A DNA stretch of 41,092 nt from an uncultured Ruminococcus sp. (lineage in GTDB: Bacteria; Bacillota; Clostridia; Oscillospirales; Ruminococcaceae): NCBI GenBank assembly GCA_902766335.1, contig CACXDI010000148.1:1-41092 (forward strand), read 5' to 3'. Position 1 is the stretch's first letter; every line of letters starts with the position of its first letter. This document shows positions 11,375 through 36,302 of this stretch, one piece after another. Both the position numbers and the translations under genes were made by a program. The notes under the pieces are model-generated. The model made no database searches and was not told the origin of the DNA. It worked only from the letters and a program-made list of their open reading frames with translations.

Positions 11375-11392
11375 GATCGGAGAAGAGCAATA

Positions 11393-16493: not shown

Positions 16494-16546
16494 AATTAAA
16501 AACCATAGTGCATAGATAGGAATTTACTCAAACGGAGCGTGATCCT

Positions 16547-17932: not shown

Positions 17933-17955
17933 CTTCTCTAAAAGGAACTGATGAT

Positions 17956-19107: not shown

Positions 19108-19119
19108 GAGGGTGACGTA

Positions 19120-19878
19120 ATGTGCGAATTATTCGGCTTTTCGGCTGAAAGAAAAACTGATCTGAATGAATATCTCGAAAGCTTTTTTTCGCACAGCAGA
19201 CTGAACCCGCACGGCTGGGGGATGATGTATGAGGACGGCGTCCGGTGTGTCGTGAGAGAGCCTGTCAAGGCGACAGACAGCGTGATGCTGCCGGCTATCC
19301 TGGAAAGCATCCCGCCTCAGAAGATCATGCTGGCGCATATCCGCTACGCGACTGTCGGCAGTATCGCGGAGGAGAACTGCCACCCGTTCACGGCGCAGGA
19401 CATCTCGGGACGCGAGTGGACGCTGATACACAACGGTACGATCTATTCCGGCGGCGTGACCTACCGGTACTATAAGCAGCAGGCGGGCGACACCGATTCC
19501 GAGCGGCTGTTCCTGGCATTCATTGACCACATGAACGATGTGCTGTCGAAGGGCAGCATTACGGAGCGCGAAAGATTCCAGACGGTGAGCAGATTCATCG
19601 CGGACAACGCCCCGAGAAACAAGCTGAATCTGATGCTGTATGACGGCGAGCTGCTCTACGTCCACAAAAATCTTAAAAATACCCTCAGCTGCAAGCGGGT
19701 AGACGGCGGCATTATCTTTTCGACGCAGCCCCTCGACGAGGACGGCTGGGCGGCATTCCCGATAGCCCAGACGATCGCGTACAAAAACGGCAGCGAGGTC
19801 TATCGCGGCGAACGGCACAAGGGGATATTTATTCCGTCGCTTGAATACATCACGGCGCTTGATGCTATGAATATATAA
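19120..19878 (+). CDS. Class II glutamine amidotransferase, EgtC/YafJ/Dug3-like
   Basis: N-terminal nucleophile MCELFG, NPHGWG, AHIRYAT, NCHPF, HNG, GDTDSE. Confidence 0.88.
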   Translation: MCELFGFSAERKTDLNEYLESFFSHSRLNPHGWGMMYEDGVRCVVREPVKATDSVMLPAILESIPPQKIMLAHIRYATVGSIAEENCHPFTAQDISGREWTLIHNGTIYSGGVTYRYYKQQAGDTDSERLFLAFIDHMNDVLSKGSITERERFQTVSRFIADNAPRNKLNLMLYDGELLYVHKNLKNTLSCKRVDGGIIFSTQPLDEDGWAAFPIAQTIAYKNGSEVYRGERHKGIFIPSLEYITALDAMNI

Positions 19879-19899
19879 AAATATGAAAGGCTTGATAAT

Positions 19900-20646
19900 A
19901 TGTCAGAATTACTAAAGATAGAAGAGCTCTCGGCAGGTATAGAGGAGAAGGAGCTGCTGCACGGCATCACGCTTACGGTGGACGAGGGCGAGACCCACGT
20001 GCTTATGGGGCAAAACGGAGCAGGAAAATCCACCCTCGGAAGCACGATCATGGGCAGCCCCGAATACACGGTCACCGGCGGAAAAATATATTTCGGCGGC
20101 GATGACATCACGGAGGAGACCGCCGACAAGCGTGCAAAGCGCGGCATATTTCTTTCCTTCCAGAACCCGATCGAGATACCCGGGATAACCCTTTCGGAGT
20201 TTCTCCGCAATGCTGTGGAGCAGGTCACGGGCAAGAGAATAAAGCTGTGGGAGCACAAGAAAACCCTTAAAAAATCAATGGAAGCGCTGGGTATGGACAG
20301 TTCCTATGCTGACCGCGATCTGAATGTGGGATTCTCCGGCGGCGAAAAAAAGAAGGCGGAGATCTTACAGCTTCTGACGCTGAAGCCGCGTCTCGCCATT
20401 CTTGACGAGACAGACTCGGGGCTTGACGTTGACGCTGTAAAGGTGGTGTCGAAGGGCATCGAGGAGTACCGCAAAACGGTGGGCGGCACGCTCATCATCA
20501 TCACCCACAACGCGAAGATCCTCGAGGAGCTGCACGTTGACAGGACGCATATCCTTTCTAACGGAAAGGTGGTGCGCGAGGGCGACGGACAGCTGGCGTT
20601 CGACGTGCTGGCTGAAGGATTTGAGAAATATATCGGTGAGGTATAA
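19900..20646 (+). CDS. sufC: Fe-S assembly ATPase SufC
   Basis: MGQNGAGKSTL, FLSFQNP, NVGFSGGEKK, LDETDSGLDVD. Confidence 0.96.
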   Translation: MSELLKIEELSAGIEEKELLHGITLTVDEGETHVLMGQNGAGKSTLGSTIMGSPEYTVTGGKIYFGGDDITEETADKRAKRGIFLSFQNPIEIPGITLSEFLRNAVEQVTGKRIKLWEHKKTLKKSMEALGMDSSYADRDLNVGFSGGEKKKAEILQLLTLKPRLAILDETDSGLDVDAVKVVSKGIEEYRKTVGGTLIIITHNAKILEELHVDRTHILSNGKVVREGDGQLAFDVLAEGFEKYIGEV

Positions 20647-20650
20647 ATAA

Positions 20651-22060
20651 ATGAAACAGAAAACACAGGTTGCGGATATTGACCGTTCACTGTACGATTT
20701 CCGCTTTGACGAGGACGAGAATGACTTTCTTGACAGCGGCATCACCCCTGAGATCATCGGCGAGATATCCGATGAAAAGGGCGATCCCGACTGGATGAGG
20801 GAGTTTCGCCTGAAGTCACTTGAGATATACAACAGGACGAAAATGGTGGAGTGGGGCGCCTCGATAGAGGGGCTGGACATCGACAACATCGTGACCTACA
20901 TCCGCCCGAAAAGCCGCATGAACACCGACTGGGACAACGTCCCCGACGACATCAAGAACACCTTTGAAAAGCTGGGCATACCTCAGGCGGAGCGTGAGAG
21001 TCTTGCTGGCGTGGGCGCTCAGTACGATTCGGAGCTGGTCTACCACAACGTCCGCGAGGAGGTGGCGCAGTCGGGAGTGGTCTACACCGACCTGGAAAGT
21101 GCCATGCACGATCCGAAGTATGCGGACATAATCAAGTCGCACTTCATGAAGTTGGTGCCACCCACAGATCACAAATTTGCAGCGCTTCACGGTGCGGTCT
21201 GGTCTGGCGGTTCATTTGTATATGTCCCGAAAAACGTACACTTGGACATTCCGCTGCAATCCTATTTCCGTCTCAACGCAAAGGGCGCGGGACAGTTCGA
21301 GCACACGCTGATAATCCTCGAGGAGGGTGCGTATCTGCACTTCATCGAGGGCTGCTCCGCACCGAAATACTATGAGGCGGGACTGCACGCAGGCTGCGTT
21401 GAGCTGTATGTCGGTAAGGGCGCAACGCTGCGTTATTCGACGATAGAGAACTGGTCAAAGAATATGTACAACCTCAATACCAAAAGAGCATTAGTACAAG
21501 AAAACGGACGGATAGAATGGGTGTCCGGAAGCTTCGGATCCCACGTAAGCTACCTTTATCCTATGAGTATATTAAACGGCAGGGGAGCGAGCGCAGAATT
21601 TACCGGGATCACCTTCGCAGGCGAGGGGCAGGACCTCGATACGGGTGCGAAGATCGTTCACAATGCGCCTGATACCTCGTCCTATATGAACACGAAATCT
21701 ATCAGCAAATCAGGCGGGAAAAGCACGTTCCGGAGCGCTGTCACGGTGAACGAAAAGGCTGTCGGCAGCAAGTCCTCGGTAAACTGCGAATCGCTTATGC
21801 TAGATAACATCTCGCGATCCGACACGGTGCCGGTGATCGTCACAAAGACTGATAAATGCGACATCGGGCACGAGGCGAAGATAGGCAGGATCAGCGACGG
21901 AGCTATATTCTATCTGATGTCGAGAGGTCTTTCGGAGGAGGAAGCGAGAGCGATGATCGTGCGTGGCTTTGCGGACAATGTGTCCAAGGAGCTGCCGCTG
22001 GAATACGCGGTGGAGATGAACAATCTTATCGGGCTTGAAATGCACGGAAGCGTGGGGTGA
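20651..22060 (+). CDS. sufB: Fe-S assembly scaffold SufB
   Basis: AQYDSE, VWSGGSF, GQFEHTLI, EGCSAP, HEAKIG, LPLEYAVE. Confidence 0.96.
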   Translation: MKQKTQVADIDRSLYDFRFDEDENDFLDSGITPEIIGEISDEKGDPDWMREFRLKSLEIYNRTKMVEWGASIEGLDIDNIVTYIRPKSRMNTDWDNVPDDIKNTFEKLGIPQAERESLAGVGAQYDSELVYHNVREEVAQSGVVYTDLESAMHDPKYADIIKSHFMKLVPPTDHKFAALHGAVWSGGSFVYVPKNVHLDIPLQSYFRLNAKGAGQFEHTLIILEEGAYLHFIEGCSAPKYYEAGLHAGCVELYVGKGATLRYSTIENWSKNMYNLNTKRALVQENGRIEWVSGSFGSHVSYLYPMSILNGRGASAEFTGITFAGEGQDLDTGAKIVHNAPDTSSYMNTKSISKSGGKSTFRSAVTVNEKAVGSKSSVNCESLMLDNISRSDTVPVIVTKTDKCDIGHEAKIGRISDGAIFYLMSRGLSEEEARAMIVRGFADNVSKELPLEYAVEMNNLIGLEMHGSVG

Positions 22061-22064
22061 AAAA

Positions 22065-22874
22065 ATGGCGAACACAAAACTGAACATTCTCCCCGTACCC
22101 ACATTTGCGAGTCTGGGAGTGAATTATACAGAGCGTGATATATCAGAATATGAAATAAAGGATGTAACAGTATCCGACGATGATAACAAAGAAATAGTAC
22201 AGTACATTATTTCGGACACTATCACAAACATCACTGTTGATACAAACGTAAGCTCAAAGCTTATCCAGATCTTTGACGGCAGTTCTCAGACGGCTTCGAG
22301 GCTTAATGTCACTCTTGCGGACAACGCGAGACTTGACCTTGTTCAGCTGTATCTCGGCGGCGATTTGGTAAGCGAGATCGTCACCGAGCTGAAGGGCGGC
22401 AGGTCTGCTTTTACGGCGGATATTGCATACGATCTCGGGGCGGGCGAAGGGCTTGACCTGAATCTTGTCGCTAACCATTACGGCAGGAAAAGCAGCTCGG
22501 AGATCTCCGTGAACGGTGTGCTCCGGGAGGACGCCAAAAAGACCTTCAAGGGGACTATCGACTTTAAAAACGGTGCGGCTGGTTCCGTCGGCAGCGAGAA
22601 GGAGGAGGTCATTCTCATGAGCGAAAAAGCCGTCAACAAGACCGTCCCCGTTATCCTCTGCGACGAGGAAGATGTAATGGGCAATCACGGTGCGACGATC
22701 GGGCGTATCGACGAGCGCCACATCTTCTACATGAAGTCGAGGGGCATTCCCGAAGAGAAGATCTATGAGCTTATGGCGAGGTCAAAGCTTATGAAGGCTA
22801 TCCGGCTGATAGATGATAAGCAGACGAAAATAAAAATATATGAAACACTTGGGTGGGGTGATGAGAATGAGTGA
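22065..22874 (+). CDS. sufD: SufD-like Fe-S assembly protein (short form)
   Basis: FKGTIDF, PVILCDEEDVMGNHGATIG, FYMKSRGI; position between sufB and sufS. Confidence 0.9.
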   Translation: MANTKLNILPVPTFASLGVNYTERDISEYEIKDVTVSDDDNKEIVQYIISDTITNITVDTNVSSKLIQIFDGSSQTASRLNVTLADNARLDLVQLYLGGDLVSEIVTELKGGRSAFTADIAYDLGAGEGLDLNLVANHYGRKSSSEISVNGVLREDAKKTFKGTIDFKNGAAGSVGSEKEEVILMSEKAVNKTVPVILCDEEDVMGNHGATIGRIDERHIFYMKSRGIPEEKIYELMARSKLMKAIRLIDDKQTKIKIYETLGWGDENE

Positions 22875-24078
22875 CTACAAGGCGGATTTTCCGGTTTTCG
22901 CCGCATATAAAGACCTGGTATATCTCGACAGCGCAGCCACCACCCAGAAGCCCCGGCAGGTGCTTGAGGCGGTGGAAAAATACTACCGCGAGGAGAATGC
23001 CAACCCGCTGAGAGGTCTCTACGAGCTGAGCGTCAAGGCGACTGACGCGTATGAAAACGCCCGCGAGTCGGTGCGGAGCTTCATCGGCGCGGCAAGCACA
23101 CGGGAGATCATTTTCACCCGCAACGCCAGCGAGAGCCTGAACCTGATCTCTTACTGCTTCGGTGATCTTGTCCGCGAGGGCGACGAGATCTTAGCGGCAG
23201 TTTCGGAGCATCATTCCAACTTTCTGCCATGGCAGCAGCTTGCAAAACGCACAGGTGCAAAACTGAAATTTCTCGAATGTGACAAGCAGGGAGAATACAC
23301 CGCAGACGCCCTAAATGCAGCGCTTTCGCCGAATACTAAGCTGTTTGCCATAGCGCAGGTGTCCAACGTTTTCGGGCGGGTGAATCCTATAAAGGAGTTC
23401 GCGGATATCTGCCATAAAAACGGCACGCTCATCGTCTGCGACGGCGCTCAGAGCGTCCCGCATATGCCGGTGGACGTGCATGAGCTCGGGGTGGATTTCC
23501 TCGCTTTTTCGGGGCACAAAATGCTCGCGCCAATGGGTGTCGGCGTGCTTTACGGACGTGAGGAGCTGCTGGAGAAAATGCCGCCCTTCCTCTACGGCGG
23601 CGAGATGATCGAGTACGTCACCCGTGACGGCGCCACCTATGCCGAGCTTCCCCACAAGTTTGAAGCGGGCACGGTAAACGTGGGAGGAGCCGTCGGTCTG
23701 CACGCGGCGATCGACTATATCAACAGCGTGGGCTTTGAGAATATCGTCAGGCGAGAAAGCGCTCTGACGGCACTTGCATACGAATATATGAAACAAATAC
23801 CCCACGTCAATATCATAGGCGCGGATAGTGCGGCAGAGCATCACGGGATAATAACTTTCACGGTGGACGGCGTTCACCCGCACGACATCGCGGCTATCTT
23901 CGACAGCGAAAACGTCGCCATAAGGGCGGGTCACCACTGCGCTCAGCCGCTGCATCAGCATCTGGGAGTGCAGTCTACGGTGCGAATGAGTCTCGCATTT
24001 TACAATGACGAGCAGGATATCGAAAGGTTCATAACAACACTTAAAAGCATAAGGGGGCGCATGGGATATGGCGGATAA
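22867..24078 (+). CDS. sufS: Cysteine desulfurase SufS (group II)
   Basis: YLDSAATTQKP, SGHKM (PLP Lys), RAGHHCAQP. Confidence 0.96.
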   Translation: MSDYKADFPVFAAYKDLVYLDSAATTQKPRQVLEAVEKYYREENANPLRGLYELSVKATDAYENARESVRSFIGAASTREIIFTRNASESLNLISYCFGDLVREGDEILAAVSEHHSNFLPWQQLAKRTGAKLKFLECDKQGEYTADALNAALSPNTKLFAIAQVSNVFGRVNPIKEFADICHKNGTLIVCDGAQSVPHMPVDVHELGVDFLAFSGHKMLAPMGVGVLYGREELLEKMPPFLYGGEMIEYVTRDGATYAELPHKFEAGTVNVGGAVGLHAAIDYINSVGFENIVRRESALTALAYEYMKQIPHVNIIGADSAAEHHGIITFTVDGVHPHDIAAIFDSENVAIRAGHHCAQPLHQHLGVQSTVRMSLAFYNDEQDIERFITTLKSIRGRMGYGG

Positions 24079-24508
24079 TTTTTACAACGAGGTGCTGATC
24101 GATCACAATCTGCACCCTCAGCACCTGCACGAGCTGCCCTGTGCCACCTGCTCGAATGCGGGGCTGAACCCCACCTGCGGAGACTCGCTGACGCTGCACC
24201 TTTCCATTGACGGCGGCGTAATAAAGGACGGCTCCTTCACCGGTGTTGGCTGCGCCATATCGCAGGCTTCCACCGATATAATGCTCGATCTCATCATCGG
24301 CAGGACGCCCGATGAAGCGCGTCATCTGAGTGAGCTTTTCGGCAGGATGATAGGCGGGGAGATCTCAGATGATGAGCTTGAGGAGCTGGAGGAGGCAGGC
24401 GCTCTGCAAAGCATTTCCAAAATGCCTGCGAGGGTCAAGTGCGCAACGCTGGGTTGGAAGACGCTGGATAAGCTGCTTGGCGAACAGATAACCGGAGGTG
24501 GGTCATGA
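24068..24508 (+). CDS. sufU: SufU sulfur-transfer protein
   Basis: NPTCGD, GCAISQAS, RVKCATL. Confidence 0.95.
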   Translation: MADNFYNEVLIDHNLHPQHLHELPCATCSNAGLNPTCGDSLTLHLSIDGGVIKDGSFTGVGCAISQASTDIMLDLIIGRTPDEARHLSELFGRMIGGEISDDELEELEEAGALQSISKMPARVKCATLGWKTLDKLLGEQITGGGS

Positions 24509-24954
24509 AAGTCTCTACAAGAGTTGAATACGGAATAATCGCGCTTGCAGATATCGCGATAAACGGCGGAGACGGCAAGACCGTATCATCGTCGGATATC
24601 TCCGAGCGGCAGGATATCTCACAGAAATATCTGGAGCAGATAATCATAAGCCTGCGTCAGGGCGGATTCGTCAAGGGTCAGAAGGGCTCCCGGGGCGGCT
24701 ATGTGCTTTCGCGTCCCGCGGACAGGATCTATCTTTCCGAGGTGCTCAACGCCCTTGACAACAGCATTCTCGCCGACGCCTACGAAGACGGCGAGGACAA
24801 CACGGCTGGTATGCGCGGCTCGGTAAATTTCTGTCTGTGGAACAAGATCAACGGCTATATGCGCCGCTTTACCGAGCAGATGACCCTTGCGGACATCATC
24901 GCCGAGCACCGTGAAAATGCAGAAATATCTACGGAAAATATGTACTATATATGA
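24505..24954 (+). CDS. Rrf2-family regulator, CymR-like (lacks the IscR three-Cys motif)
   Basis: MKVSTRVEYG, ISQKYLEQI, KGSRGGYVL; only one Cys. Confidence 0.9.
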   Translation: MKVSTRVEYGIIALADIAINGGDGKTVSSSDISERQDISQKYLEQIIISLRQGGFVKGQKGSRGGYVLSRPADRIYLSEVLNALDNSILADAYEDGEDNTAGMRGSVNFCLWNKINGYMRRFTEQMTLADIIAEHRENAEISTENMYYI

Positions 24955-24969
24955 TCGGAGGAGAGTAAT

Positions 24970-25872
24970 ATGCCAATAAGACTGAAGGAATCGCTCCCTG
25001 TCATTGAAAAGCTGAAAAAAGAAAACATCTTCGCTATGACGGAGGAGCGTGCGATACATCAGGACATCAGAGAGCTGAAGATAGCTGTGCTGAATCTGAT
25101 GCCCGACAAGGAAAACACCGAGCAGCAGCTTTTGCGGCTGCTTTCCAACTCGCCGCTGCAAATAGAGGTGACGTTCATACGTCTTGTTTCCCACAAGTAC
25201 AAGAACACGCCGCTGTCCTATCTGCTGCGCAACTACAAGCCCTTCTACGAGATCGAGAACAAGTACTTCGACGGGCTGATAATCACCGGCGCTCCGGTGG
25301 AAAAGCTGGAGTTCGAGGAGGTGGACTACTGGGGCGAGCTCACCGCCATACTGGAGTGGAGCAGGATCCACGTCACCTCAACGCTGTACCTCTGCTGGGC
25401 GGCGCAAGCGGGGCTCTACTACCACTACGGCGTCCGCAAGACCGATTATCCCGGCAAGCTGTCCGGCATTTTTGAGCACACCGTTACCGATCCGGCAAAC
25501 GAGCTGGTGAGGGGCTATGACAAGCATTTCTACGCTCCCCATTCGAGACACACGGGCGTCAGCCGCGAGGATATTGACGGCATAAGCGAGCTTACGGTCA
25601 TCGCCGAGTCTGACGAGGCGGGAGTCTATATCGTCACCGACGGCAAGGGGAATGTGTTCGTCAACGGTCATCCGGAGTACGATCTATACCGGCTTGCCGA
25701 GGAGTATATCCGCGACACCGACGCAGGTCTTGAGCCGGCGATCCCCGCGAATTATTTCCCGGACGACGATCCGGAAAAGGAGCCGGTGAGCCGCTGGATA
25801 TCATCCTCAAGCCTGCTGTTTTCCAATTGGCTCAACTACTTTGTATATCAGATAACACCATATGAATTTTAA
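24970..25872 (+). CDS. metA: Homoserine O-acyltransferase MetA, predicted acetyl-CoA specific
   Basis: LNLMP, ITGAPVE (Glu at the specificity position), LCWAAQA (catalytic Cys), PHSRH, GHPEY. Confidence 0.94.
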   Translation: MPIRLKESLPVIEKLKKENIFAMTEERAIHQDIRELKIAVLNLMPDKENTEQQLLRLLSNSPLQIEVTFIRLVSHKYKNTPLSYLLRNYKPFYEIENKYFDGLIITGAPVEKLEFEEVDYWGELTAILEWSRIHVTSTLYLCWAAQAGLYYHYGVRKTDYPGKLSGIFEHTVTDPANELVRGYDKHFYAPHSRHTGVSREDIDGISELTVIAESDEAGVYIVTDGKGNVFVNGHPEYDLYRLAEEYIRDTDAGLEPAIPANYFPDDDPEKEPVSRWISSSSLLFSNWLNYFVYQITPYEF

Positions 25873-25877: not shown

Positions 25878-25913
25878 AAAAAAGCGCTGTCCTTCATGAA
25901 CAGCGCTCTTTTT
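25878..25913. terminator. Bidirectional intrinsic terminator between the convergent operons
   Basis: A tract, stem agcgctgt / acagcgct, then T tract. Confidence 0.85.
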
Positions 25914-25919: not shown

Positions 25920-26252
25920 TCACACCAGCTTGTCCGAGATGAATCTTTTCAGCACCGCGTCGATGCTGCCGCTTACCTCAAAGACCCGCACCACCTTCTC
26001 GATCAGGTACGCCGCAGCCACCTCACCGATCTTCTGAACCAGCACCGCGTCGCAGTCGGAGAGCAGCTCGATGATCTTGTCGAAGCGGGTGGTATCATGC
26101 CCCAGACTGTGCTGACATGCGGCTACCGCGTCCCGCACTTCGATGTGCTCGTACCCCTCCTCCGACAGGTCATATACGCGGAAAAACTTTGCGTGCCCGA
26201 AATGCTCGTTGACGGTAAAGCCGTCTGATGTTGCTATCGCTATCCTTGCCAT
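25920..26252 (-). CDS. NifX/NifB-C-terminal family (dinitrogenase FeMo-cofactor-binding domain) protein
   Basis: IAIATSDG..VNEHFGHAKFF, LSDCDAVLVQKIG. Confidence 0.88.
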   Translation of the reverse strand: MARIAIATSDGFTVNEHFGHAKFFRVYDLSEEGYEHIEVRDAVAACQHSLGHDTTRFDKIIELLSDCDAVLVQKIGEVAAAYLIEKVVRVFEVSGSIDAVLKRFISDKLV

Positions 26253-26269
26253 ATCATCATTTCCTTTCC

Positions 26270-26296
26270 AAAAAGAGCTGCCTTTTACGGCAGCTC
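26270..26296 (-). terminator. Intra-operon terminator-like hairpin after the K-like gene
   Basis: gagctgcc-gtaaaa-ggcagctc-ttttt on the minus strand, directly before the next RBS. Confidence 0.75.
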
Positions 26297-26303
26297 CGTT
26301 TCG

Positions 26304-27644
26304 TTATTTGTATGTAGCCAACGAAGTGTTGTAGATGTCCTCGATGACCCTGAGACCGCCGGTGTAGCCCACGTAATTGGTGGTCAGCACTATGCGGTAG
26401 GGGGTGGGACAGGCTATCGACAGGAAGTCGGCGTCGATCTCAGCCGCAAGCTCCTTGTCCCAGCCGCTGCCCAGGATAAGCCCGCGTCCCTTGTGCTTCA
26501 AGCCGCGGATAACGTCCTGCATGGCGCCCGCATCGGGATCGAAGTACACCGGGATCTCCCGTTTGTCGGAGGCAGCCTTGATGTCCGCCGCTATCTGCTC
26601 CTGGTACTTCTTCGGCACGTTGTCCACGATGAACTGCTCCTTGGGAACAACGCCTGTCTCGTGCAGCAGGAATCTGGTGAGACCAACAACATACCCCGAA
26701 TCGTGGAGGATATGCGCGTAGGAGGGGAGTCCGTAGCGGAACTCCAGCAGGAAGGTGGCGAGGTTGTCAAGCTCCTCGTAGTAAGCCTTTTCCTCCTCCT
26801 CGATGAACTTTCTTGCCTTTTTCTCGTTGATCTCCGCGCCCTGCTCTATAGCAAAGTCAAGCACGCCGTTTAAGAAGCGTGTGGTCTCGTTTGCGCCGAT
26901 CGGCAGATAGCCGAACTTGAAGTAAGGCTGACCGTATCTTCTCTCCAGATTCTTGACGATAGGCTCGCCGTACCAGGGCGAGATGAACACATTGAAGTTA
27001 GCCTTCGGGATAGTCTGCCATTCCTTCACGCCGCCGGAATGGGGTCCGAAGAGGATATTGACTTTAAGCCCCAGCCCCTCCAGCAGCCGCTTGTATTCTT
27101 TGAGATTGCCCTTCCAGAACTGATCCTGATAGGGGATAGAAGCGATGACGTTGACCAGGTTCTTCTCGCTGCGCGAGGGATTCTCCTCCTCGAATCGGCT
27201 AACATACTGGTCTATGATCGCATTGACCACCGCCGAGTGAGATACATAGTTGTTAGACTTGAAGCCGGAGGTCTCAACGTGTACGATAGGTCTGTCCTCC
27301 TCGTAAAGGAACTCATCAGTGACGCTCGCCACGTCATCGCCCACGATACCTGCGGTACATCCGGTGACTACCACCTGCAAGTCGGTGTCCAGCACCTTGT
27401 AGGTGTTCTTGATTATATTGCGGAGCCTGTCGGTGCCTCCGAAAACAACTTCCTTTTCGCTGAAATTGGTGCAGGGCGCAGTCTCGCCGCCGGCATATCC
27501 CGCCGAGCGCTCAAAAAAGCCCTTTATCATAACTCCGCAGCCGGGTCCCGAATGAAGTATCGGAACGGCGCGGGGGATAGCTACCACCGTCTGCAAAGCA
27601 CCTATGGCGCAGGTGTAGCGCTCCTGTTCTATAAGTCCTGCCAT
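26304..27644 (-). CDS. Nitrogenase component 1 beta-like subunit (group IV NflK/MarK-like)
   Basis: P-cluster Cys motifs RYTCAIGA, HSGPGC, TGCTAGIVGDD; PIGANET; YVGYTGG. Confidence 0.88.
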   Translation of the reverse strand: MAGLIEQERYTCAIGALQTVVAIPRAVPILHSGPGCGVMIKGFFERSAGYAGGETAPCTNFSEKEVVFGGTDRLRNIIKNTYKVLDTDLQVVVTGCTAGIVGDDVASVTDEFLYEEDRPIVHVETSGFKSNNYVSHSAVVNAIIDQYVSRFEEENPSRSEKNLVNVIASIPYQDQFWKGNLKEYKRLLEGLGLKVNILFGPHSGGVKEWQTIPKANFNVFISPWYGEPIVKNLERRYGQPYFKFGYLPIGANETTRFLNGVLDFAIEQGAEINEKKARKFIEEEEKAYYEELDNLATFLLEFRYGLPSYAHILHDSGYVVGLTRFLLHETGVVPKEQFIVDNVPKKYQEQIAADIKAASDKREIPVYFDPDAGAMQDVIRGLKHKGRGLILGSGWDKELAAEIDADFLSIACPTPYRIVLTTNYVGYTGGLRVIEDIYNTSLATYK

Positions 27645-27659
27645 ATCTGTTCTTCTCCT

Positions 27660-29126
27660 TTACTTTCCGAGGAATGTGTAGGGCTCCTGTTCGAGCCACC
27701 ATTTTGTGTAGGGGTTCACCGAGTGCTGAGCGAGGTTCTTGACGAACTCATCGTTCTCGATAGTCTCAAGTATGCGCTCGCCGTAGTTGACGAGTCCCTC
27801 GTAGCCCATGCCGAAATGCTCGTCGCCCACCAGCAGCGAGGGTATGCCCAGCTTTGCGCCCCAGAGAGTCATGCCGCCGTGACGCGCAAGCAGAATGTCC
27901 GGCTTGATGCGGTTGAGCACGTTAACCAGCTCGAACTCCTGTTTGTTGCAGACGTTGTAGTTGGGGACGTCGCCGTAGTCCTCGACGGTGTGTCTGAGCG
28001 TGTCGGAGCGCTCGTCCTCGTTGTCATACTGCGGGTCATGATGGAATATCGCCGCACCCTGCGGCTCCATGCCAAGCTCCTTGAGCAGCGCAAGCAGCGA
28101 GTGACCGTGCGACGCACCCGCCGTAACGTAGGCGGTCTTGCCCTTCAGCTTCTCACGCAGCGCCTCGATCTTCGGCAGGTACTCCGCCTTCTTGCGGGCG
28201 AGAAATTCCTCGACTTCCTTTTCCTTGCCGAGTATCTGTCCCAGCTCTCTGAACCAGCGGTCAGTCTGGGCGATGCCGTAGGGGGGAGAATTGCGTATCT
28301 CCGGCACCCCGAAGGACTGCTCCAGCGCCGCGCCTAAGTAGCTGCCCAGCGTAGAGCAAGCCTGGATCGTCAGCGCCGCCTCGCTGGAATAGCTGAGGCT
28401 GTCAACTGTCGCGAAGGGGGTGATATAATTAGGCTCGTAGCCGAACTCCGCGAACCACTCGCGGAAAATATCGCTGCCCCAGAAGTTTATCACATTGATG
28501 ATGTTTCTCTTCTGCCTTGCGGGCTTGATGATCTTCCTTGCTATACCGTGATAGCCCGCGTCAAAGCCGGACGTCCACATCTTTGAGCGGAAGCCCTCGC
28601 AGAATACCGCCACAACGGGAATGCCCAGCTCCTTCTCAGCATTGTTGGTGACGCTCTCCACATCGTCGCCGATGATACCCGCAGCACAGGTGGTGATGAC
28701 GAATATCGCCTTAGGCTTTGCCCGCTTGTATACCTCGTGAATGGCAGCGTCGAGCTTTTTGCCGCCGCCGTAGATCGTATCCTTTTCCTCCAGATTGGTG
28801 GAGAATATCTTGCGCTGGGTGGGGTGCTCAAGCTGCCTTAAATAAGCGTTGACGCGGTATGTAAACGCGAACTCGTGCAGACAGGTGGAGCAGCCCACAG
28901 GACCGTGTGAAATGATCGCCGCGTCCTGAATAAGCGTCAGCGTGCAGGCGGCGTTTGAGGTGCCGCAGCCGAGACATTGGCTGAAAGACCTGCTCTTGTC
29001 TTTAAGCTTCCCGCAGCCGGAGCAGGCGCTCACCAGCTCCTTTGCCGTACCCTGAAACCCGGTAATGGAATTTAAGCGTATCTCGCGTATCTCCACCTCG
29101 GGTATATCCAGATTAACTTTACTCAT
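27660..29126 (-). CDS. Nitrogenase component 1 alpha-like subunit (group IV NflD/MarD-like)
   Basis: FSQCLGC, HGPVGC, STNLEEKDTIYGG, TTCAAGIIGDD, CEGFRSKMWTSGF, ACSTLG, GDEHFGMGYEG. Confidence 0.88.
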   Translation of the reverse strand: MSKVNLDIPEVEIREIRLNSITGFQGTAKELVSACSGCGKLKDKSRSFSQCLGCGTSNAACTLTLIQDAAIISHGPVGCSTCLHEFAFTYRVNAYLRQLEHPTQRKIFSTNLEEKDTIYGGGKKLDAAIHEVYKRAKPKAIFVITTCAAGIIGDDVESVTNNAEKELGIPVVAVFCEGFRSKMWTSGFDAGYHGIARKIIKPARQKRNIINVINFWGSDIFREWFAEFGYEPNYITPFATVDSLSYSSEAALTIQACSTLGSYLGAALEQSFGVPEIRNSPPYGIAQTDRWFRELGQILGKEKEVEEFLARKKAEYLPKIEALREKLKGKTAYVTAGASHGHSLLALLKELGMEPQGAAIFHHDPQYDNEDERSDTLRHTVEDYGDVPNYNVCNKQEFELVNVLNRIKPDILLARHGGMTLWGAKLGIPSLLVGDEHFGMGYEGLVNYGERILETIENDEFVKNLAQHSVNPYTKWWLEQEPYTFLGK

Positions 29127-29138
29127 GTCATTACTCCC

Positions 29139-30002
<864 letters not shown>

Positions 30003-30088
30003 TTACCTCACTTCATATTTACTGATATATCAAATACCATATGCGGTATTTTGACTGTATATACATATAATACATATTGTATTTTATA

Positions 30089-30970
30089 TCAACCGTGAGA
30101 GAACGTATCCTTTCTGGACAATCTCTGAAGGTCAATATATATCTGACTGCCGTAATCCTCGCCGCCGGGTATTCCCACAGCGTCCGCGCGGCACCGCTGA
30201 CAATGTCTGAACACGTCGATATATTTCGACGCCCGGAGTATCGCCCGCTCCAGCTCCATGCAGTCCGGCTCGCGGCTGTCCTTGAGCTTGGCGTTGGGTA
30301 TCAGCGGGATGATGTTGTAGATATCCGCACCCGCTTCCGCGACTGTCATCGCCACTTCCTCGATGTGATCGGCGTTGATGTCCGGCACCAGCACCGTGTT
30401 CACCTTGAGGGTTATGCCCGCCTCGCTTATGAGCCGTATGCCCTTGAGCTGCTGCTCTATCAGTATCTCTGCCGCTTCGACTCCCGTGTAGTGCTTGCCG
30501 TGCCACACGATACCGTCGTTGAGCTTCGCTTCTATCTCCGGGTCAACGGCATTCACCGTCACCGTCAGCGAATCAATGCCCACCTCGATGATCTCCTGCG
30601 CCTTCTCCGCAAGCAGCAGACCGTTGGTGCTCATGCACTTGACCAGCTGGGGAAATTCCTTCTTCACCAGCCGGAAGGTCTCCAGCGCGTAGGGACTCGC
30701 AAGCGTGTCTCCGGGGCCCGCGATACCAGCTACGTGTATCGCCGGACAGACCTCCAGTGCCCGCCGTATCGCTTCTATTGCTTCCTCGGGAGTGATGACC
30801 GTCGAGGTCACGCCGGGACGCTTTTCGTAGGTATTGAAGCTGCGCTCGCAGAAGCGGCACTGTATGTTGCAGGTGGGACTGATAGGCAGGTGCATACGTC
30901 CGTTCCCGCTGTTTGGTCCTTTGGCAAAGCAAGGGTGCTTTGTAGTCAGTTCTTCGTATGAGATCGCCAT
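30089..30970 (-). CDS. nifB: Radical SAM carbide-insertase NifB (stand-alone SAM domain; MarB-like)
   Basis: All NifB fingerprints: HPC, CNIQCRFC, EKRP, AGPG, TVTVN, CQRCRADA. Confidence 0.92.
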   Translation of the reverse strand: MAISYEELTTKHPCFAKGPNSGNGRMHLPISPTCNIQCRFCERSFNTYEKRPGVTSTVITPEEAIEAIRRALEVCPAIHVAGIAGPGDTLASPYALETFRLVKKEFPQLVKCMSTNGLLLAEKAQEIIEVGIDSLTVTVNAVDPEIEAKLNDGIVWHGKHYTGVEAAEILIEQQLKGIRLISEAGITLKVNTVLVPDINADHIEEVAMTVAEAGADIYNIIPLIPNAKLKDSREPDCMELERAILRASKYIDVFRHCQRCRADAVGIPGGEDYGSQIYIDLQRLSRKDTFSHG

Positions 30971-31317
30971 TTGTCACCCTCCCATTGTTTTTCTTCCATA
31001 AGCAGACACAGCGCCTGCTCGATAGTCAGCGGTATCTGATATACCCTGATACCCTGCTCCTCGATGTATTTCTTCGCGCCGGGGCCCGCCCTCTGCGCGA
31101 CTACGGCGCTGACGTCCGAGAGTATCCTTGCTGCTGCCTCAAAGTCCGATACCTCGTGGCTGCCGCCGTGACACGGCGGCTTCACCAGACGGTATCCGAT
31201 CAGCTCGCAGTCCTCCTTTTCGGTGTCCAGCAGCGCGATGTAGAACCGCTCCGCCTGCCCGAAATGCCTGTCGATATTCTCGCCGTCGCTGCTTGCAAAT
31301 GCTATCCTGTAGATCAT
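30946..31317 (-). CDS. NifX/NifB-C-terminal family protein
   Basis: IAFASSDG..IDRHFGQAERF, PPCHGG, AGPGA; overlaps the nifB start. Confidence 0.88.
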   Translation of the reverse strand: MIYRIAFASSDGENIDRHFGQAERFYIALLDTEKEDCELIGYRLVKPPCHGGSHEVSDFEAAARILSDVSAVVAQRAGPGAKKYIEEQGIRVYQIPLTIEQALCLLMEEKQWEGDKWRSHTKN

Positions 31318-31341
31318 ACTTTTCCTTTTTTGTCGCGATAC

Positions 31342-32250
31342 TCAGCCGAAAAGTCCCGTGCTGAAATATCTGTCGCCTCTGTCGGGGAACACCACGACGA
31401 TGACTCCCTTGTCGAGTCGGCTTGCCAGCTTTATCGCCGCCGCCATAGCCGCTCCCGAGGAGGAGCCTGCGATTATGCCTTCATTTTTCGCAAGCTGTCC
31501 CACCGCCGCAAAAGCCTCGTTGTCGTTTATTTTCACTACCTCGTCCACCAGACCGATGTCCATGGTGTCGGGTATAAAGTCGTTGCCGATACCCTCGATG
31601 TTGTAGTCGAAGTGTTCGCCGCCGCCTATGGTGGAGCCTTCGGGGTCTGCAAGCACGCCCCTGATGTCCGGGTCATGCTCTTTAAGGTACCGGGCTATGC
31701 CGGTGTAGGTGCCGCCGCTGCCCGCTCCCGCGATGAAGTGGGTCACCCTGCCGCCGATGTCCTCCCAGATCTCTTTGCCGGTAGTCTCGTAGTGAGCCAG
31801 CGGATTGTTGGGATTCTTGAACTGCTCCAGAGATATTGAATCGGGTATCTGAGCTTTAAGCTCATCAGCCTTGCGCACCGCCCCCAGCATACCCTCCGCA
31901 CGGGGAGTGTTGATGACCTCCGCGCCCAGCGCACGCATGAGCGCCTGCTTTTCTGCGGAGAATTTAGTCGGGACGGTGAAGATCACCCTGTAGCCTTTGC
32001 CAAGTGCCGCGAATGCGATTCCCAGTCCCGTGTTGCCGGCGGTAGCCTCGATGATCGTGCTGCCCGGCTTTAATCTGCCCTCGCGCTCGGCGGCGGCGAT
32101 CATGTACTCGCCGATCCTGTCCTTGACGCTGCCCGAGGGGTTATACATTTCAAGCTTTGCATATATCTGTACTTCGGGGGAGACCCCCATATTGTTCAGC
32201 CTCACCAGCGGTGTGTGACCTATAAGTTCATGCATATTCTCGTATATCAT
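31342..32250 (-). CDS. mccA: O-acetylserine-dependent cystathionine beta-synthase (MccA/YrhA-like) or cysteine synthase
   Basis: NPSGSVKDR (PLP Lys), ATAGNTG (MccA-type rather than CysK TSGNTG), GSGGT, IEGIG; paired with a cystathionine lyase. Confidence 0.75.
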   Translation of the reverse strand: MIYENMHELIGHTPLVRLNNMGVSPEVQIYAKLEMYNPSGSVKDRIGEYMIAAAEREGRLKPGSTIIEATAGNTGLGIAFAALGKGYRVIFTVPTKFSAEKQALMRALGAEVINTPRAEGMLGAVRKADELKAQIPDSISLEQFKNPNNPLAHYETTGKEIWEDIGGRVTHFIAGAGSGGTYTGIARYLKEHDPDIRGVLADPEGSTIGGGEHFDYNIEGIGNDFIPDTMDIGLVDEVVKINDNEAFAAVGQLAKNEGIIAGSSSGAAMAAAIKLASRLDKGVIVVVFPDRGDRYFSTGLFG

Positions 32251-32251
32251 T

Positions 32252-33409
32252 TTATTTTACCTCACTTGCCTTGATAGCGTTGTCAAGGTCTTCAAGAATG
32301 TCGTCTATATCCTCGATACCTATAGAAAGTCTTATCAGCCCGTCGGTGATACCCACCTTTTTGCGTATCTCCTCCGGGATAGAAGCGTGCGTCATGCTCG
32401 AGGGGTGGCATACCAGCGACTCCACGCCGCCCAGGCTCTCTGCAAGCGTTATCAGCTTAAGGCTCTCAAAGAACACCTTGATGTCGTAGTTGTCCTTGAG
32501 TTCAAAGGAGATCATCACGCCGCCGTTTTTAGCCTGCCGCCTGTTGACCTCGTAGCCCTTGTCGCTCTTGAGCCCCGGATAGTGTACGCTCTTGACCGCG
32601 TTGTGCTCTTTCAGGAACTTCGCCGCCGCCAGCGCGTTTGATACGTGCCTGTCGAGTCTCACGCCCAGCGTCTTGATACCGCGTATCAGCAGGAAGCTGT
32701 CGAAGGGCGGGAGCACTCCGCCGGTGGAGTTCTGTATGAAGGCTATCTGCTCCGCAAGCTCCTTTGTCTTGACCACCGCAAGCCCTGCCACAACATCACT
32801 GTGACCGCCCAGATACTTGGTGGCGCTGTGGATAACGATGTCAGCACCCAGCTCCAGAGGTCTTTGCAAATAGGGCGTCATAAAGGTGTTGTCAACTATC
32901 ACCAGCAGCCCGTGCCTGTGAGCGATCTCCGCTGCGGCGCGTATGTCCGTGACCGTCATCAGCGGATTTGCCGGGCTTTCTATCAGCACCGCCTTGACGT
33001 CGGATGTGATATCCTTCTCAAAGGCTTCCGCATCGTCGGTCTCGGAAATGGTGTAGTTTATCCCGAAATGGTCAAACACCTGATTCAGAAGCCTGAACGT
33101 CCCGCCGTATACATTAGAGGAGATCAGCACTCTGTCCCCCGAATGGAGCAGGCTCAGCACTGCCGTTTCCGCCGCCAGACCGCTTGCAAAGGCAAATCCC
33201 GCATAGCCGCCCTCCAGCTCGGCGATCAGCGCTTCCAGCGCTTCGCGGGTGGGATTGCCGGTGCGGGAGTACTCATACCCCCTCAGCTTTCCCAGACCGT
33301 CCTGCTTGAAGGTGGAGGTCTGATAGATAGGTACGTTCACCGCACCCGTTCTCTCGTCGATCGAGATACCGCCGTGTATCAGAGCGGTGTCTATTTTCCT
33401 GTAGCTCAT
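32252..33409 (-). CDS. mccB: Cystathionine gamma-lyase/synthase (MccB/YrhB-like)
   Basis: YEYSRTGNPTR, ESPANP, DNTF, SATKYLGGHSD, AESLGGVESL, MTHAS. Confidence 0.75.
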   Translation of the reverse strand: MSYRKIDTALIHGGISIDERTGAVNVPIYQTSTFKQDGLGKLRGYEYSRTGNPTREALEALIAELEGGYAGFAFASGLAAETAVLSLLHSGDRVLISSNVYGGTFRLLNQVFDHFGINYTISETDDAEAFEKDITSDVKAVLIESPANPLMTVTDIRAAAEIAHRHGLLVIVDNTFMTPYLQRPLELGADIVIHSATKYLGGHSDVVAGLAVVKTKELAEQIAFIQNSTGGVLPPFDSFLLIRGIKTLGVRLDRHVSNALAAAKFLKEHNAVKSVHYPGLKSDKGYEVNRRQAKNGGVMISFELKDNYDIKVFFESLKLITLAESLGGVESLVCHPSSMTHASIPEEIRKKVGITDGLIRLSIGIEDIDDILEDLDNAIKASEVK

Positions 33410-33434: not shown

Positions 33435-33485
33435 CCTATGTGCTTGGTATGAATTAATAATACAACAAAAAACTCTCTGTGTCAA
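33435..33485 (-). promoter_or_regulatory. SigmaA promoter of the mcc/nif-like operon with downstream CMTA-N9-TAKG box
   Basis: TTGACA (33480-33485)-17 bp-TATTAT (33457-33462); cctatgtgcttggtatg at 33435-33451. Confidence 0.78.
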
Positions 33486-33494: not shown

Positions 33495-33510
33495 GTGATA
33501 ACGTTATCAC
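33495..33510. promoter_or_regulatory. Perfect LacI-type palindromic operator
   Basis: gtgataacgttatcac, 16-bp perfect palindrome with central CG. Confidence 0.8.
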
Positions 33511-33518: not shown

Positions 33519-34592
33519 TCAGATATAATACTCCGGCTCGTTCAGCTCCCTGAAGGGGTGACAGCTTTCGCGTATCACCAGCGTGCCTTCCACCTCAAGC
33601 CGGGACACTATCCTGTGCCCGCCCTTTATCCTGTCCAGCAGCAGCATGAGCGCGAACCGCACCATTTCGTTCTTCGGCAGGGAAATGGTGGTCAGCATGG
33701 GCTTGGTGTACTGGGCGGCGTCAATGTCGTCGCTGGATATCACGGAAGGCATATACCCTCTCTGCCGGCGCTTGCTCATCGCCCCCAGCATACCCACCGC
33801 CAGGATATCGTTCGCACAGTATATACCGGTGGGCGGTTCTTCCAGCGCACTGAAATACTCCATAGCCGCGATACCGCCCGCTTCATTCGGCAGCGTGTCG
33901 AAGATGTGGTCTATGTCCGGCGATATGTGATTGGCAGCCAGCGCCGCCTGATAACCCGCAAACCGCGATTCGTTATGACAGTCACCCACATACCCTATCC
34001 TTGTGTGACCCAGCTTTGCGAGATACTCCACCGCCGTCTGGGCTATCCTGCTGCCGTCGCAGAGCACCTCGTCAGCCTCGTAGTTGGTGGAGTTGCGGTT
34101 TATGGAAACGATGTTCTTCTCCTTCGCTTTAAGCAGCCTGAGTGCCTTGCCCGTCACCTTTCCGATGATGATGAGCCCGTCCGAGCGTGCTCCCGGCGAA
34201 GGATACAGCTCCTCCACCAGCTTTTGCAGCCTGTCGGTGCGGCTGAGCTTTTCGTCCGAAAACTCGGCGTTGTGCCATACGTGCCCCACGATACAGCCCC
34301 TGTCCCGGAGCTCCTTTTCCAGTATCATCAGCAGCTCGTCATAAAACGGATCGGCAGTCTCGTGAGCGTATCTCGTAAGCAGGATATCCACACGGTATAT
34401 CCGCTCCTCGCTCCTGCCGCCCGCCCTCAGCGAGCGTGCGCTTGCGTTGGGTATGTAGTTTATCTCACGTGCCGCCCCCAGCACCCGCTTTTTCACGTCC
34501 TCGCTGGAGCATTTGTGGTTGGGGTCTGAAAGTATCCTGCCCACCGTGGACACCGATACCCCGGTCATTTCGGAAATTCTCTTTAAAGACAC
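33519..34592 (-). CDS. LacI-family transcriptional regulator
   Basis: SLKRISEMTGVSVSTVGRIL HTH, YIPNASARSL hinge, LGHTRIG, NDILAVG, PMLTTI; GTG at 34592 behind aaaggcgg (alternative ATG at 34619). Confidence 0.92.
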   Translation of the reverse strand: MSLKRISEMTGVSVSTVGRILSDPNHKCSSEDVKKRVLGAAREINYIPNASARSLRAGGRSEERIYRVDILLTRYAHETADPFYDELLMILEKELRDRGCIVGHVWHNAEFSDEKLSRTDRLQKLVEELYPSPGARSDGLIIIGKVTGKALRLLKAKEKNIVSINRNSTNYEADEVLCDGSRIAQTAVEYLAKLGHTRIGYVGDCHNESRFAGYQAALAANHISPDIDHIFDTLPNEAGGIAAMEYFSALEEPPTGIYCANDILAVGMLGAMSKRRQRGYMPSVISSDDIDAAQYTKPMLTTISLPKNEMVRFALMLLLDRIKGGHRIVSRLEVEGTLVIRESCHPFRELNEPEYYI

Positions 34593-34616
34593 AAAATTAC
34601 CGCCTTTCCGATTATT

Positions 34617-34663
34617 CATATCAATTTAATATGAATTATATCAGATAGACGGTAAATTGTCAA
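34617..34663 (-). promoter_or_regulatory. Consensus sigmaA promoter of the LacI gene with CATA-N9-TATG box
   Basis: TTGACA (34658-34663)-17 bp-TATAAT (34635-34640); catatcaatttaatatg at 34617-34633. Confidence 0.78.
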
Positions 34664-34720: not shown

Positions 34721-36010
34721 TCAGATAAGTCCCGCTGCCTTGAACGCCTGCTCTAAGTCTGCGATAAGATCCTCCGCGTCCTCAAGACCGGCAGAAATGC
34801 GTATCAGGTTCTTCGGGATATCCGCAAGCACGAACTCCTCCTCGTTGAGCTCGCTGTGGGTGGTGTTGGGAGAGTCAACGATAAGCGATCTTGCGTCGCC
34901 GAGATTTACGTGATAGTTGAACAGCGTGATGTTGTTTAAGAACGTCGCCTCCTGCTCGGGAGTGCCCTTGATACCGAAGGCGAGCACTCCGCCGCCGCCG
35001 TTGGGCAGATTTTTCTCGGCGAGCGCCTTGAATTTGTAATCCTTAGCGCTGGGGTGGCGTACCCATTCTACAGCCGGGCTGCTCTCCAGATATGCCACGA
35101 TCTTCTCGGCGTTTTTCGACTGCTTGGCAACGCGCTCCGAGAGCGTCTCCAGACCGATTATCCCGAGATAAGCGTCCTGAGGAGAGAGCGCCGCACCCAG
35201 CAGATTCAGATACACCAGCGTCAGACGGAAGATAAAGAAATTGTCCGCAAATATGTCCGCGGGAGCCTTGCCCTTGAGCATAACTATCGGCTCAAAGAAC
35301 TGGGGATAGCGCTCCTTTGTGTAAAGGCTCATGTCGCCGTTGTCCAGCACAAGACCTGCGATGATATTTCCGTGACCGGTCAGCGCCTTCGTTGCCGAGT
35401 ATACCACGATGTCCGCACCGTGCTCCAGAGGTCTGTAGAGGTAAGGCGTCGCAAGAGTGTTGTCAACTACCACCGGCACGCCGTGCTTGTGAGCCACCTC
35501 AGAGATAGCGTCGATGTCCAGCAGGTAAGCGTTGGGATTGCTGATAGACTCAACATAGACCGCCTTGACGTCGTCGGTGAGCTCTGCTTCCAGCTTTGCG
35601 GGGTCAAGCACCGCGTCGGTGAGCTTGATCTTTATTCCCAGCTCCGGGAAAAGCCTGTCGAAGGCGTCTATCGAACCGCCGTAGAGGAAGGGAGAAGCAA
35701 GTATCGTGCCGCCCTTTGAAGCGAGGTTCAGCAGAGTGTAGGTGATAGCCGCCATGCCGGAGCCTACCGCTACAGCGTTCTTAGCACCGTCCAGAGCCTT
35801 CACCCGCTCGGCAAAATATGTCACCGTGGGATTGCCGACTCTTGTGTAAAGGTAGCCGGCTTCCTTGTAGGTAAAGAGATTCTGCGCGTGCTCCGTGTCT
35901 CTGAAATCGTATGCCGTTGTCTGATAGATAGGCGGGAGCACCGAGAGATTGTTGTCCTTGGGATCGTAGCCCGCTCTTATCTTTCTTGTGTCAAAATTCA
36001 GTTCTGCCAT
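34721..36010 (-). CDS. metY: O-acetylhomoserine aminocarboxypropyltransferase (sulfhydrylase)
   Basis: PIYQTTAY, YTRVGNPT, VDNTLATP, SATKALTGHG, GLETLSER, VNLGDARSL; start at 36010 behind aaagga. Confidence 0.9.
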   Translation of the reverse strand: MAELNFDTRKIRAGYDPKDNNLSVLPPIYQTTAYDFRDTEHAQNLFTYKEAGYLYTRVGNPTVTYFAERVKALDGAKNAVAVGSGMAAITYTLLNLASKGGTILASPFLYGGSIDAFDRLFPELGIKIKLTDAVLDPAKLEAELTDDVKAVYVESISNPNAYLLDIDAISEVAHKHGVPVVVDNTLATPYLYRPLEHGADIVVYSATKALTGHGNIIAGLVLDNGDMSLYTKERYPQFFEPIVMLKGKAPADIFADNFFIFRLTLVYLNLLGAALSPQDAYLGIIGLETLSERVAKQSKNAEKIVAYLESSPAVEWVRHPSAKDYKFKALAEKNLPNGGGGVLAFGIKGTPEQEATFLNNITLFNYHVNLGDARSLIVDSPNTTHSELNEEEFVLADIPKNLIRISAGLEDAEDLIADLEQAFKAAGLI

Positions 36011-36091: not shown

Positions 36092-36302
36092 GTGACAACG
36101 TTGCCGCAAGGCTCTTTTTATACCCCGCCGGTTCTCTGATAAACCTGCTTTATACCCCATCCGGACAGGCTGGGAAGGGGAGCGGTACTGCAATTTGTGA
36201 TAACGATACCGCCGTGTAAATACGCGGTCTGTGACGAGTTTCTTATGTCTGCCCGGCGGGATATTTTAAACCTGCGGCGGCACATCAGGATAACGTTATC
36301 AC
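36092..36302. promoter_or_regulatory. Three LacI-type operator copies upstream of metY
   Basis: gtgacaacgttgccgc 36092-36107, gtgataacgataccgc 36197-36212, aggataacgttatcac 36287-36302. Confidence 0.72.

Follow-up and report, generated by a model that had tools for sequence, protein, structure and literature searches.

A Group IV-A nitrogenase-like operon with a likely role in sulfur scavenging in an uncultured Ruminococcus

What does a nitrogenase-like enzyme do in an operon that also carries genes for reverse transsulfuration? The question is raised by contig CACXDI010000148.1 of an uncultured Ruminococcus sp. (assembly GCA_902766335.1), a stretch of 41,092 nucleotides that was analysed as a whole and is called the window here. 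Eight intact open reading frames (ORFs) follow each other on its minus strand in the order mccB-mccA-nifX-like-nifB-nifH-D-K-nifX-like, with intergenic gaps of 1, 24, -25, 92, 12, 15 and 51 nt, behind a sigmaA-type promoter (Table 1). A first-pass annotation had already described this run, and its gene order, coordinates and promoter are confirmed here. It had read the enzyme as a Group IV homologue of nitrogenase, like Mar (methylthio-alkane reductase), that scavenges sulfur, perhaps from another substrate than Mar, and that could release methane or ethylene. By its sequence, the D/K system is Group IV-A (Nfa), not Mar (Group IV-C). On balance, we lean towards the view that this BHDK system is likely switched on at sulfur shortage and likely cleaves a C-S bond in a polar organosulfur compound that is imported and is not one of the Mar substrates.

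A 2026 review describes the function of Group IV-A as unsettled (PMC13474568). In a heterologous screen of the same year, 15 of 20 IV-C systems were reported as active, some of them from Clostridia, and the IV-A, D, E and F systems as below 10 µmol/L/OD, except Clostridium magnum IV-A on dimethyl sulfide (DMS) (PMC13753814). The Mar substrates assayed there were DMS, ethyl methyl sulfide (EMS) and methylthioethanol. Its authors state that these non-IV-C clades occur with sulfur genes and that their function is unknown (PMC13753814). IV-A genes are also figured beside methionine genes, MccA among those named, in PMC10418091. Functional Mar in Clostridia and the link between IV-A and sulfur genes are already published. 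Our literature search found no published account of this operon in Ruminococcus. New in this analysis are the sulfur regulon examined, a His194/Gln74 diagnostic and a caveat on group I NflH.

Clade and active site of the D/K pair

D was placed in a quick maximum-likelihood tree of 63 rows, calculated without bootstrap, in which the Nif outgroups were flagged as long branches; the rows, a selection of available sequences, were drawn from 28 loci, 25 proteins and three Nif outgroups. D falls in a 23-row clade (Shimodaira-Hasegawa-like approximate likelihood ratio test, SH-aLRT, 100) with the D proteins of Acetivibrio (Hungateiclostridium) thermocellus and an Endomicrobium sp. A 7-row clade of IV-C-type sequences (SH-aLRT 100) stands separate from it; IV-C is represented there by the look-alikes L052, L042, L063, L073, L077, L081 and P0125, with no row for Rhodospirillum rubrum MarD. 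The clade labels of the reference sequences were taken by eye from rows of Table S1 of PMC13753814, in which Group IV-A includes the entries from A. thermocellus, Butyrivibrio fibrisolvens, Lachnospiraceae KHCPX20 and Endomicrobium proavitum. Residues 1-60 of the A. thermocellus protein (P0094) are those of its IV-A row Hth_A, and the N-terminal starts of D and K are far nearer to these four IV-A rows than to the IV-C rows, both by eye. D shares 75.1% identity with A. thermocellus D and 73.3% with Endomicrobium sp. D, against 42-44% with two IV-C-type D proteins and 28% with NifD.

Among the nearest described systems is NfaBHDK of E. proavitum, which lies in the same subclade and has the same D/K cysteine pattern and the same gene set (X, B, H, D, K, without EN) (PMC13474568). 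A hand count against Table S1 gives about 86 identical residues in the first 133 of D. D Cys 51/54/61/79/82/147/257 correspond to Cys 50/53/60/78/81/146/257 of its NfaD, and K Cys 12/36/96 to Cys 13/37/97 of its NfaK. The two systems differ in that E. proavitum has a group II NflH and reported ammonium repression, and the window a group I NflH (assigned by eye against the Table S1 rows of PMC13753814), a sulfur regulon, MccAB and a LacI operator.

The label Mar-like comes from the best solved relatives, which are R. rubrum MarD (445 bits) and MarK (383 bits), with other entries at no more than 142 and 66 bits. Membership in Mar on the strength of this best PDB match is ruled out; MarDK is merely the nearest solved relative, and D lies outside the IV-C clade. 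As a clade assignment the label is therefore withdrawn. The D/K phylogeny, a check that the first-pass annotation had proposed, upholds its placement outside Groups I-III and moves the system from Mar to IV-A. The family cut-offs of Groups I-III (NifD/K, VnfD/K, AnfD/K) lie well above the scores, the best for D being 181 bits against cut-offs of 486-874.

An untemplated model of D (mean predicted local distance difference test score, pLDDT, 89.5) superposes on MarD (9fmg_A) with a template modelling (TM) score of 0.93 and a root-mean-square deviation of 1.4 Å, and on nitrogenases with TM scores of 0.65-0.73. In MarD numbering (PMC12552129), D keeps Cys73, Trp195, Phe199, Cys270, His375, Arg428 and His429, and all six P-cluster cysteines are kept in D/K. 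The P-cluster cysteines, Cys270/His429 and Arg428 are common to nearly all of Group IV. With the cluster ligands of Mar kept, D/K should bind a P-cluster and an L-type cluster. As in Mar, other residues stand at the positions of NifD Val70, Gln191, His195 and His442, which argues against a nitrogenase. Two pocket residues of Mar are replaced as well, His194 by Met183 and Gln74 by Thr62. The His194 position is His in 10/10 IV-C-type proteins and Met, Val, Ile or Leu in 189/189 core IV-A proteins, and the Gln74 position is Gln in 10/10 against 1/189, where the 189 are related sequences, not independent ones. Cys82 (189/189) and Cys51 (180/189) are special to core IV-A. R. rubrum MarBHDK (Group IV-C; PDB 9FMG, 9D9U) is thus the nearest solved structure, with 41% identity, and is alike in its minimal BHDK set and sulfur context; it differs in clade, in these two residues and in lacking two extra cysteines of the window D. 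We consider D/K most likely Mar-like in chemistry, yet no Mar by clade or pocket. Of its partners, NfaB has the NifB motifs HPC, CxxxCxxC, RPG, AGPGD, TNG and CxxCRAD, and NfaH has a Walker A motif and Cys99/Cys134.

The assembly measures 2.53 Mb and is 89.6% complete, so genes missing from genome searches are given as not found rather than absent. Family scans of the window gave no nifE/N, nifV, molybdate transporter (modA) or PII/amtB gene, as the first-pass annotation had said. The genome-wide search that it had asked for gave no NifE/N-level match in the assembly, where the only PF00148 matches are D, K and a divergent set of four genes on contig C100, and no NifV match above cut-off. Neither ModA nor a Mar or Nif system was found in this assembly; amtB-PII lies elsewhere, on contig C166. 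The rumen is rich in ammonia, which we also count against nitrogen fixation as the main role. The C100 genes belong to a second, very divergent nitrogenase-like cluster between hydE and hypF (2453-9920), with two NifH-like genes (49-51% identical to NfaH) and four component-1 genes, none of which reaches a Nif, Vnf or Anf cut-off.

A predicted LacI operator and the sulfur genes

Several elements had been overlooked before: a LacI-family gene, a palindromic operator, metY, and a terminator-like hairpin that separates K from the last nifX-like gene (Table 1). The window has 3 operator matches at no more than 3 mismatches, where 0.07 are expected. A matrix was trained on 109 sites, all of them from relatives, and ranks the palindrome of the operon first in the genome (28.8 bits). 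Three genome sites reach at least 20 bits; their targets are this operon, metY and a gene on contig C119 that encodes a Cys-rich, SsuA/NMT1-like binding protein and is divergent from a LysR gene. Lower-scoring matches are near the shuffle background, and no operator site was found on the amtB-PII contig. In 32/32 lacI-bearing loci, the operator precedes the cystathionine gamma-lyase (CGL) gene, metY or lacI. Among 48 loci without lacI, 45 have no site; of the others, two come from close relatives whose sequence breaks off just upstream, and one has a stray match. The operator is found in 0/15 distant CGL-bearing loci without lacI. LacI itself is encoded in 8/9 genus genomes with D and 0/7 without D.

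Five LacI genomes have 13-25 matches each to the operator pattern (reversed control 0-2), and five others 3-7 (control 1-5); exact matches are found only in LacI-bearing genomes, which are also the larger genomes. In one relative (G001), 11 of 22 matches precede sulfur genes: this operon, lacI, metY (two), metNIQ (three), gshA (two), an SsuA-like importer and a sulfate-ABC/cysK region. Three others precede genes of unknown role, and eight are intragenic or unexplained. Further targets in other relatives are cysE, a sulfur-carrier/MoeZ gene and a second IV-A-like paralogue. The palindrome was also compared with the cre consensus of CcpA. A cre site is disfavoured by T/C at position 5 in 210/218 aligned half-sites, by the restriction of exact matches to LacI-bearing genomes and by targets that are sulfur genes. 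A riboswitch was looked for as well, and no Rfam match was found in the window.

The -35 box starts exactly 9 nt past the palindrome in 60/66 examined sites, at no fewer than 7 unrelated promoters. This fixed spacing upstream of the -35 box suggests that LacI acts as an activator, and it would do so from about position -52. The tail of LacI ends in EPEYYI in 32/32 orthologues. An Rrf2 protein of the window ends in MYYI and the genome's CysE in FYTI, and three other LacI-type proteins have no such tail. CymR and CysE are reported to dock into CysK through C-terminal tails of this kind (10.1101/2024.09.19.614015). LacI may therefore sense cysteine status via CysK through its YYI tail. The likeness to CymR-CysK of Staphylococcus and Bacillus, where an aromatic-Tyr-Ile tail inserts into the CysK active site, is in the tail type; in the window the tail is on a LacI-family protein and on an Rrf2 protein, the operator lies upstream of the -35 box, and docking into CysK is a prediction. 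R. rubrum Mar is under the LysR-type SalR, and the window operon is under predicted LacI-type control. No published LacI-type methionine or sulfur regulator was evident for Ruminococcus or Ruminococcaceae in the literature search.

The third target, on contig C119 (1083-3805), has three operator sites with the LysR gene divergent from the binding lipoprotein (2421-3482). Cys62, Cys130, Cys239, Cys240 and His127 of this protein are invariant in 16/16 aligned members. The next gene, for a permease, seems to break off some 35 codons from its start, close to the end of the contig, and no remainder of it was found in the assembly. A second IV-A-like D/K (54-55% identity) lies behind the same operator in some genus members (L099 8742-18000, L102 307-5793, L100 6660-11036), and the same set has peptide-type or Met-type ATP-binding cassette (ABC) importers and an IV-F-like pair adjoining another copy of the Cys-rich binding protein. 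Two further operator-preceded genes are candidate sulfur-compound importers: an unannotated lipoprotein pair with canonical spacing of the operator (L125 3219-4614), and, with the operator at 10 nt, an energy-coupling factor (ECF) S-component-like gene (L124 3144-3701; TIGR04002, below cut-off).

The gene context of relatives was counted in loci of at least 12 kb (31 close and 24 distant), with sulfur genes counted within 10 kb. CGL and cystathionine beta-synthase (CBS) genes are both found in 30/31 close loci, the remaining one being truncated. Among distant IV-A loci, 22/24 have at least one sulfur gene and the other two carry a PatB C-S lyase. AmtB/PII or nifDEN genes are found in 0/55 loci. 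In the window, the CBS-like gene is distinct from a separate CysK gene on contig C210, with a loop that reads IEGIG against IQGIG. Its best PDB matches, 5xw3 and 5b1h, are presumably O-acetylserine (OAS)-dependent CBS enzymes; these matches and the loop motif favour MccA. The CGL-like protein is also close to gamma-synthases and scores below its family cut-off. The genome encodes SahH, CysE, CysK, MetY and MetA, and neither 3'-phosphoadenosine-5'-phosphosulfate (PAPS) reductase nor a sulfate-binding protein was found in the assembly.

Readings of the function

Sulfur scavenging rather than nitrogen fixation is the likely role, as the first-pass annotation had held, given an operator spread over sulfur genes and the sulfur-gene context. 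In the reading that we favour, and by homology, NfaB would make an L-type (Fe8S9C) cluster, the NifX-like proteins would carry it, and NfaH would deliver electrons with ATP. We would guess that a polar substrate enters through the co-regulated SsuA/NMT1-like importer or through MetNIQ. The freed thiol, methanethiol or similar, would be fixed by MetY into methionine or homocysteine; methionine would then pass via S-adenosylmethionine (SAM) and S-adenosylhomocysteine (SAH) hydrolase to homocysteine, and by MccA/MccB to cysteine. Sulfur probably enters at the methionine or homocysteine level, because the enzyme is co-transcribed with reverse transsulfuration, while free sulfide could use CysK directly. 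This context fits a thiol-releasing C-S reductase and does not name its substrate. A direct demethylation of methionine to homocysteine is ruled out as a necessity. LuxS was not found (0/16 genus genomes), but SAH hydrolase is present in this genome and in 14/15 other genus genomes, so MccAB has a normal source of homocysteine.

Several points weigh against this reading. No operator was found at the genome's own metNIQ or gshA promoters. The MccAB link is not universal, with CGL and CBS both found in only 12/24 distant loci, and a Mar would be just as compatible with it. The fold of the importer leaves its ligand unnamed, because ThiY and SsuA match about equally (15-21% identity). For E. proavitum Nfa, of the same subclade, 15N2 uptake is reported, with nfaH transcripts only in the absence of ammonium (PMC13474568). 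In A. thermocellus, nitrogenase and cysteine-synthase homologues were reported as co-induced with urea-utilisation genes under ethanol stress (PMC3478167). A bolder version of the same reading, which we regard as doubtful, would turn Group IV-A, which has long been classed as an alternative nitrogenase, into a second class of L-cluster C-S reductases. These would dealkylate polar thioethers (such as methionine, S-methylcysteine or S-methylmethionine), supply MccAB directly with homocysteine or cysteine, be controlled by a LacI-CysK sulfur switch, and give methane from fibre-degrading rumen bacteria.

It is unlikely that the enzyme serves other sulfur chemistry, in which a sulfonate, sulfoxide, disulfide or thiosulfate would yield sulfide-level sulfur, or that it is an electron sink or a cofactor maturase of the sulfur regulon. 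The co-regulated importer has an SsuA/TauA/NMT1 fold with its four invariant cysteines, the extra cysteines of core IV-A could change the cluster, and Group IV-F is a precedent for sulfonate cleavage. With sulfide as product, however, CysK and CysE would make cysteine directly and a co-transcribed MccAB would be unneeded, and the buried L-cluster ligands are those of the catalytic Mar-type site.

A system that works as Mar despite its IV-A clade, turning DMS, EMS or methylthioethanol into methanethiol plus methane, ethane or ethylene, seems to us rather improbable. The fold and cluster ligands are as in MarDK, and the MetY-SahH-MccAB route suits methanethiol. Tested IV-A systems were nonetheless all below 10 µmol/L/OD on EMS and methylthioethanol, and all but one, that of C. 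magnum, on DMS; the A. thermocellus system, which like the window has a group I NflH (Hth_A, D 75% identical), was below the Mar cut-off (PMC13753814). Its cystathionine and cysteine-synthase-like genes, Cthe_1559/1560, lie nearby as judged from locus tags. The negative result for IV-A is weaker than it looks, because H of the window and of its nearest tested clostridial kin (A. thermocellus, B. fibrisolvens and Lachnospiraceae KHCPX20) is of group I. The five IV-C systems with low activity all carried a group I NflH, a type that works poorly in the host of the screen, and R. rubrum marBH restored one of them, so that even a true Mar may give false lows (PMC13753814). E. proavitum, with a group II NflH, was among the IV-A constructs tested. 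The His194 and Gln74 positions argue against Mar as well. IV-A and IV-C-type D/K pairs also lie side by side, with one B and H in common, in L052 (2405-13867), L042, L063 and L073, which suggests different jobs; L073 (Clostridium arbusti) has three D genes. The substrate thus likely differs from those of Mar, as first proposed, and a release of methane or ethylene is less likely than the first-pass annotation implied, because clade IV-A was essentially inactive on Mar substrates in the screen (PMC13753814).

A low-activity alternative nitrogenase with N2 fixation as its main role is very unlikely: it would fit the 15N2 uptake, acetylene reduction and ammonium repression reported for E. proavitum NfaDK and an H above the nifH cut-off, and is opposed by the replaced NifD residues, by NifV, ModA and NifEN not being found in the genome, by an operon that belongs to a sulfur regulon in which amtB-PII has no operator, by A. 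thermocellus, reported without diazotrophic growth and with acetylene reduction that is not ammonia-repressed (PMC4676874; we infer that its locus tags belong to the IV-A system), and by the review, which doubts that N2 fixation, reported as weak in E. proavitum, is the primary role of Nfa (PMC13474568).

Neighbouring features and meaning for the lineage

Table 1. Predicted features of the operon and its surroundings in the window
Feature	Position	Strand	Basis or remark
Bidirectional terminator-like hairpin, common to operon and convergent metA	25878..25913	.	sequence
NifX-like cluster carrier 2, 110 aa	25920..26252	-	family scan
Possible partial terminator before last nifX-like gene	26270..26296	-	sequence; hairpin 26275-26296 plus T5
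NfaK beta subunit, 446 aa	26304..27644	-	P-cluster Cys12/36/96
NfaD catalytic alpha subunit, 488 aa	27660..29126	-	P-cluster Cys54/79/147, L-cluster Cys257/His416, Arg415, extra Cys51/61/82
NfaH Fe protein, 285 aa	29139..29996	-	TIGR01287 457.8 bits, above 394 cut-off
NfaB, radical-SAM NifB without fused NifX domain, 293 aa	30089..30970	-	TIGR01290 275 bits
NifX-like cluster carrier 1, 123 aa	30946..31317	-	PF02579
MccA-like O-acetylserine-dependent cystathionine beta-synthase, 302 aa	31342..32250	-	best PDB matches 5xw3, 5b1h
MccB-like cystathionine gamma-lyase / homocysteine desulfhydrase, 385 aa	32252..33409	-	NF005810 551 bits, below its 594 cut-off
SigmaA-type promoter of operon, TTGACA-17-TATTAT, 11/12 match	33457..33485	-	same geometry in relatives
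Perfect 16-bp palindrome GTGATAACGTTATCAC, likely operator of adjacent LacI	33495..33510	.	9 nt upstream of -35 box
LacI-family regulator; likely start ATG 34619 or GTG near 34592	33519..34619	-	family scan
MetY O-acetylhomoserine sulfhydrylase	34721..36010	-	TIGR01326 444.6 bits, below its 495 cut-off
Three operator copies upstream of metY: 36092, 36197, 36287	36092..36302	.	proximal copy 9 nt before -35 box at 36082

Other genes of the window extend this picture of its surroundings. A wider sulfur island (13644-25872) has metNIQ, two glutamate-cysteine-ligase-like genes with a class II amidotransferase, sufCBDSU, metA and the Rrf2/CymR-like gene with the MYYI tail. A GC-poor block (9242-13572; 41-44%) with a sulfatase-like gene and a YidC-glycerophosphotransferase fusion was likely acquired. 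At 1181-6192 a DUF1854 gene lies between two ABC exporter genes and adjoins an S41 peptidase. Group IV genes are also found on plasmids: a complete IV-A-like BXHDK with metY and flanking insertion sequence (IS) elements in Ca. Chlorohelix (L103, NZ_CP128401.1), and two Group IV D/K pairs on pTS2 of Treponema saccharophilum (L104, NZ_AP025290.1).

The closest named loci are those of rumen Ruminococcus metagenome-assembled genomes and of R. albus-group isolates, with 93-98% D identity, so the source is probably a bacterium of this kind; the named isolates with the operon are R. albus 8, KH2T6, AR67 and Ruminococcus sp. YE71. With named isolates, no Mar or Nif found in this assembly and a defined operator that predicts expression, the lineage is a clean test case for the function of IV-A, and the His194/Gln74 differences are two residues for probing specificity. 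Since NfaH scores above the nifH cut-off, rumen nifH surveys would wrongly count these cells as nitrogen fixers. If the doubtful reading as a dealkylating reductase were true, these bacteria would be an additional bacterial methane source in ruminants.

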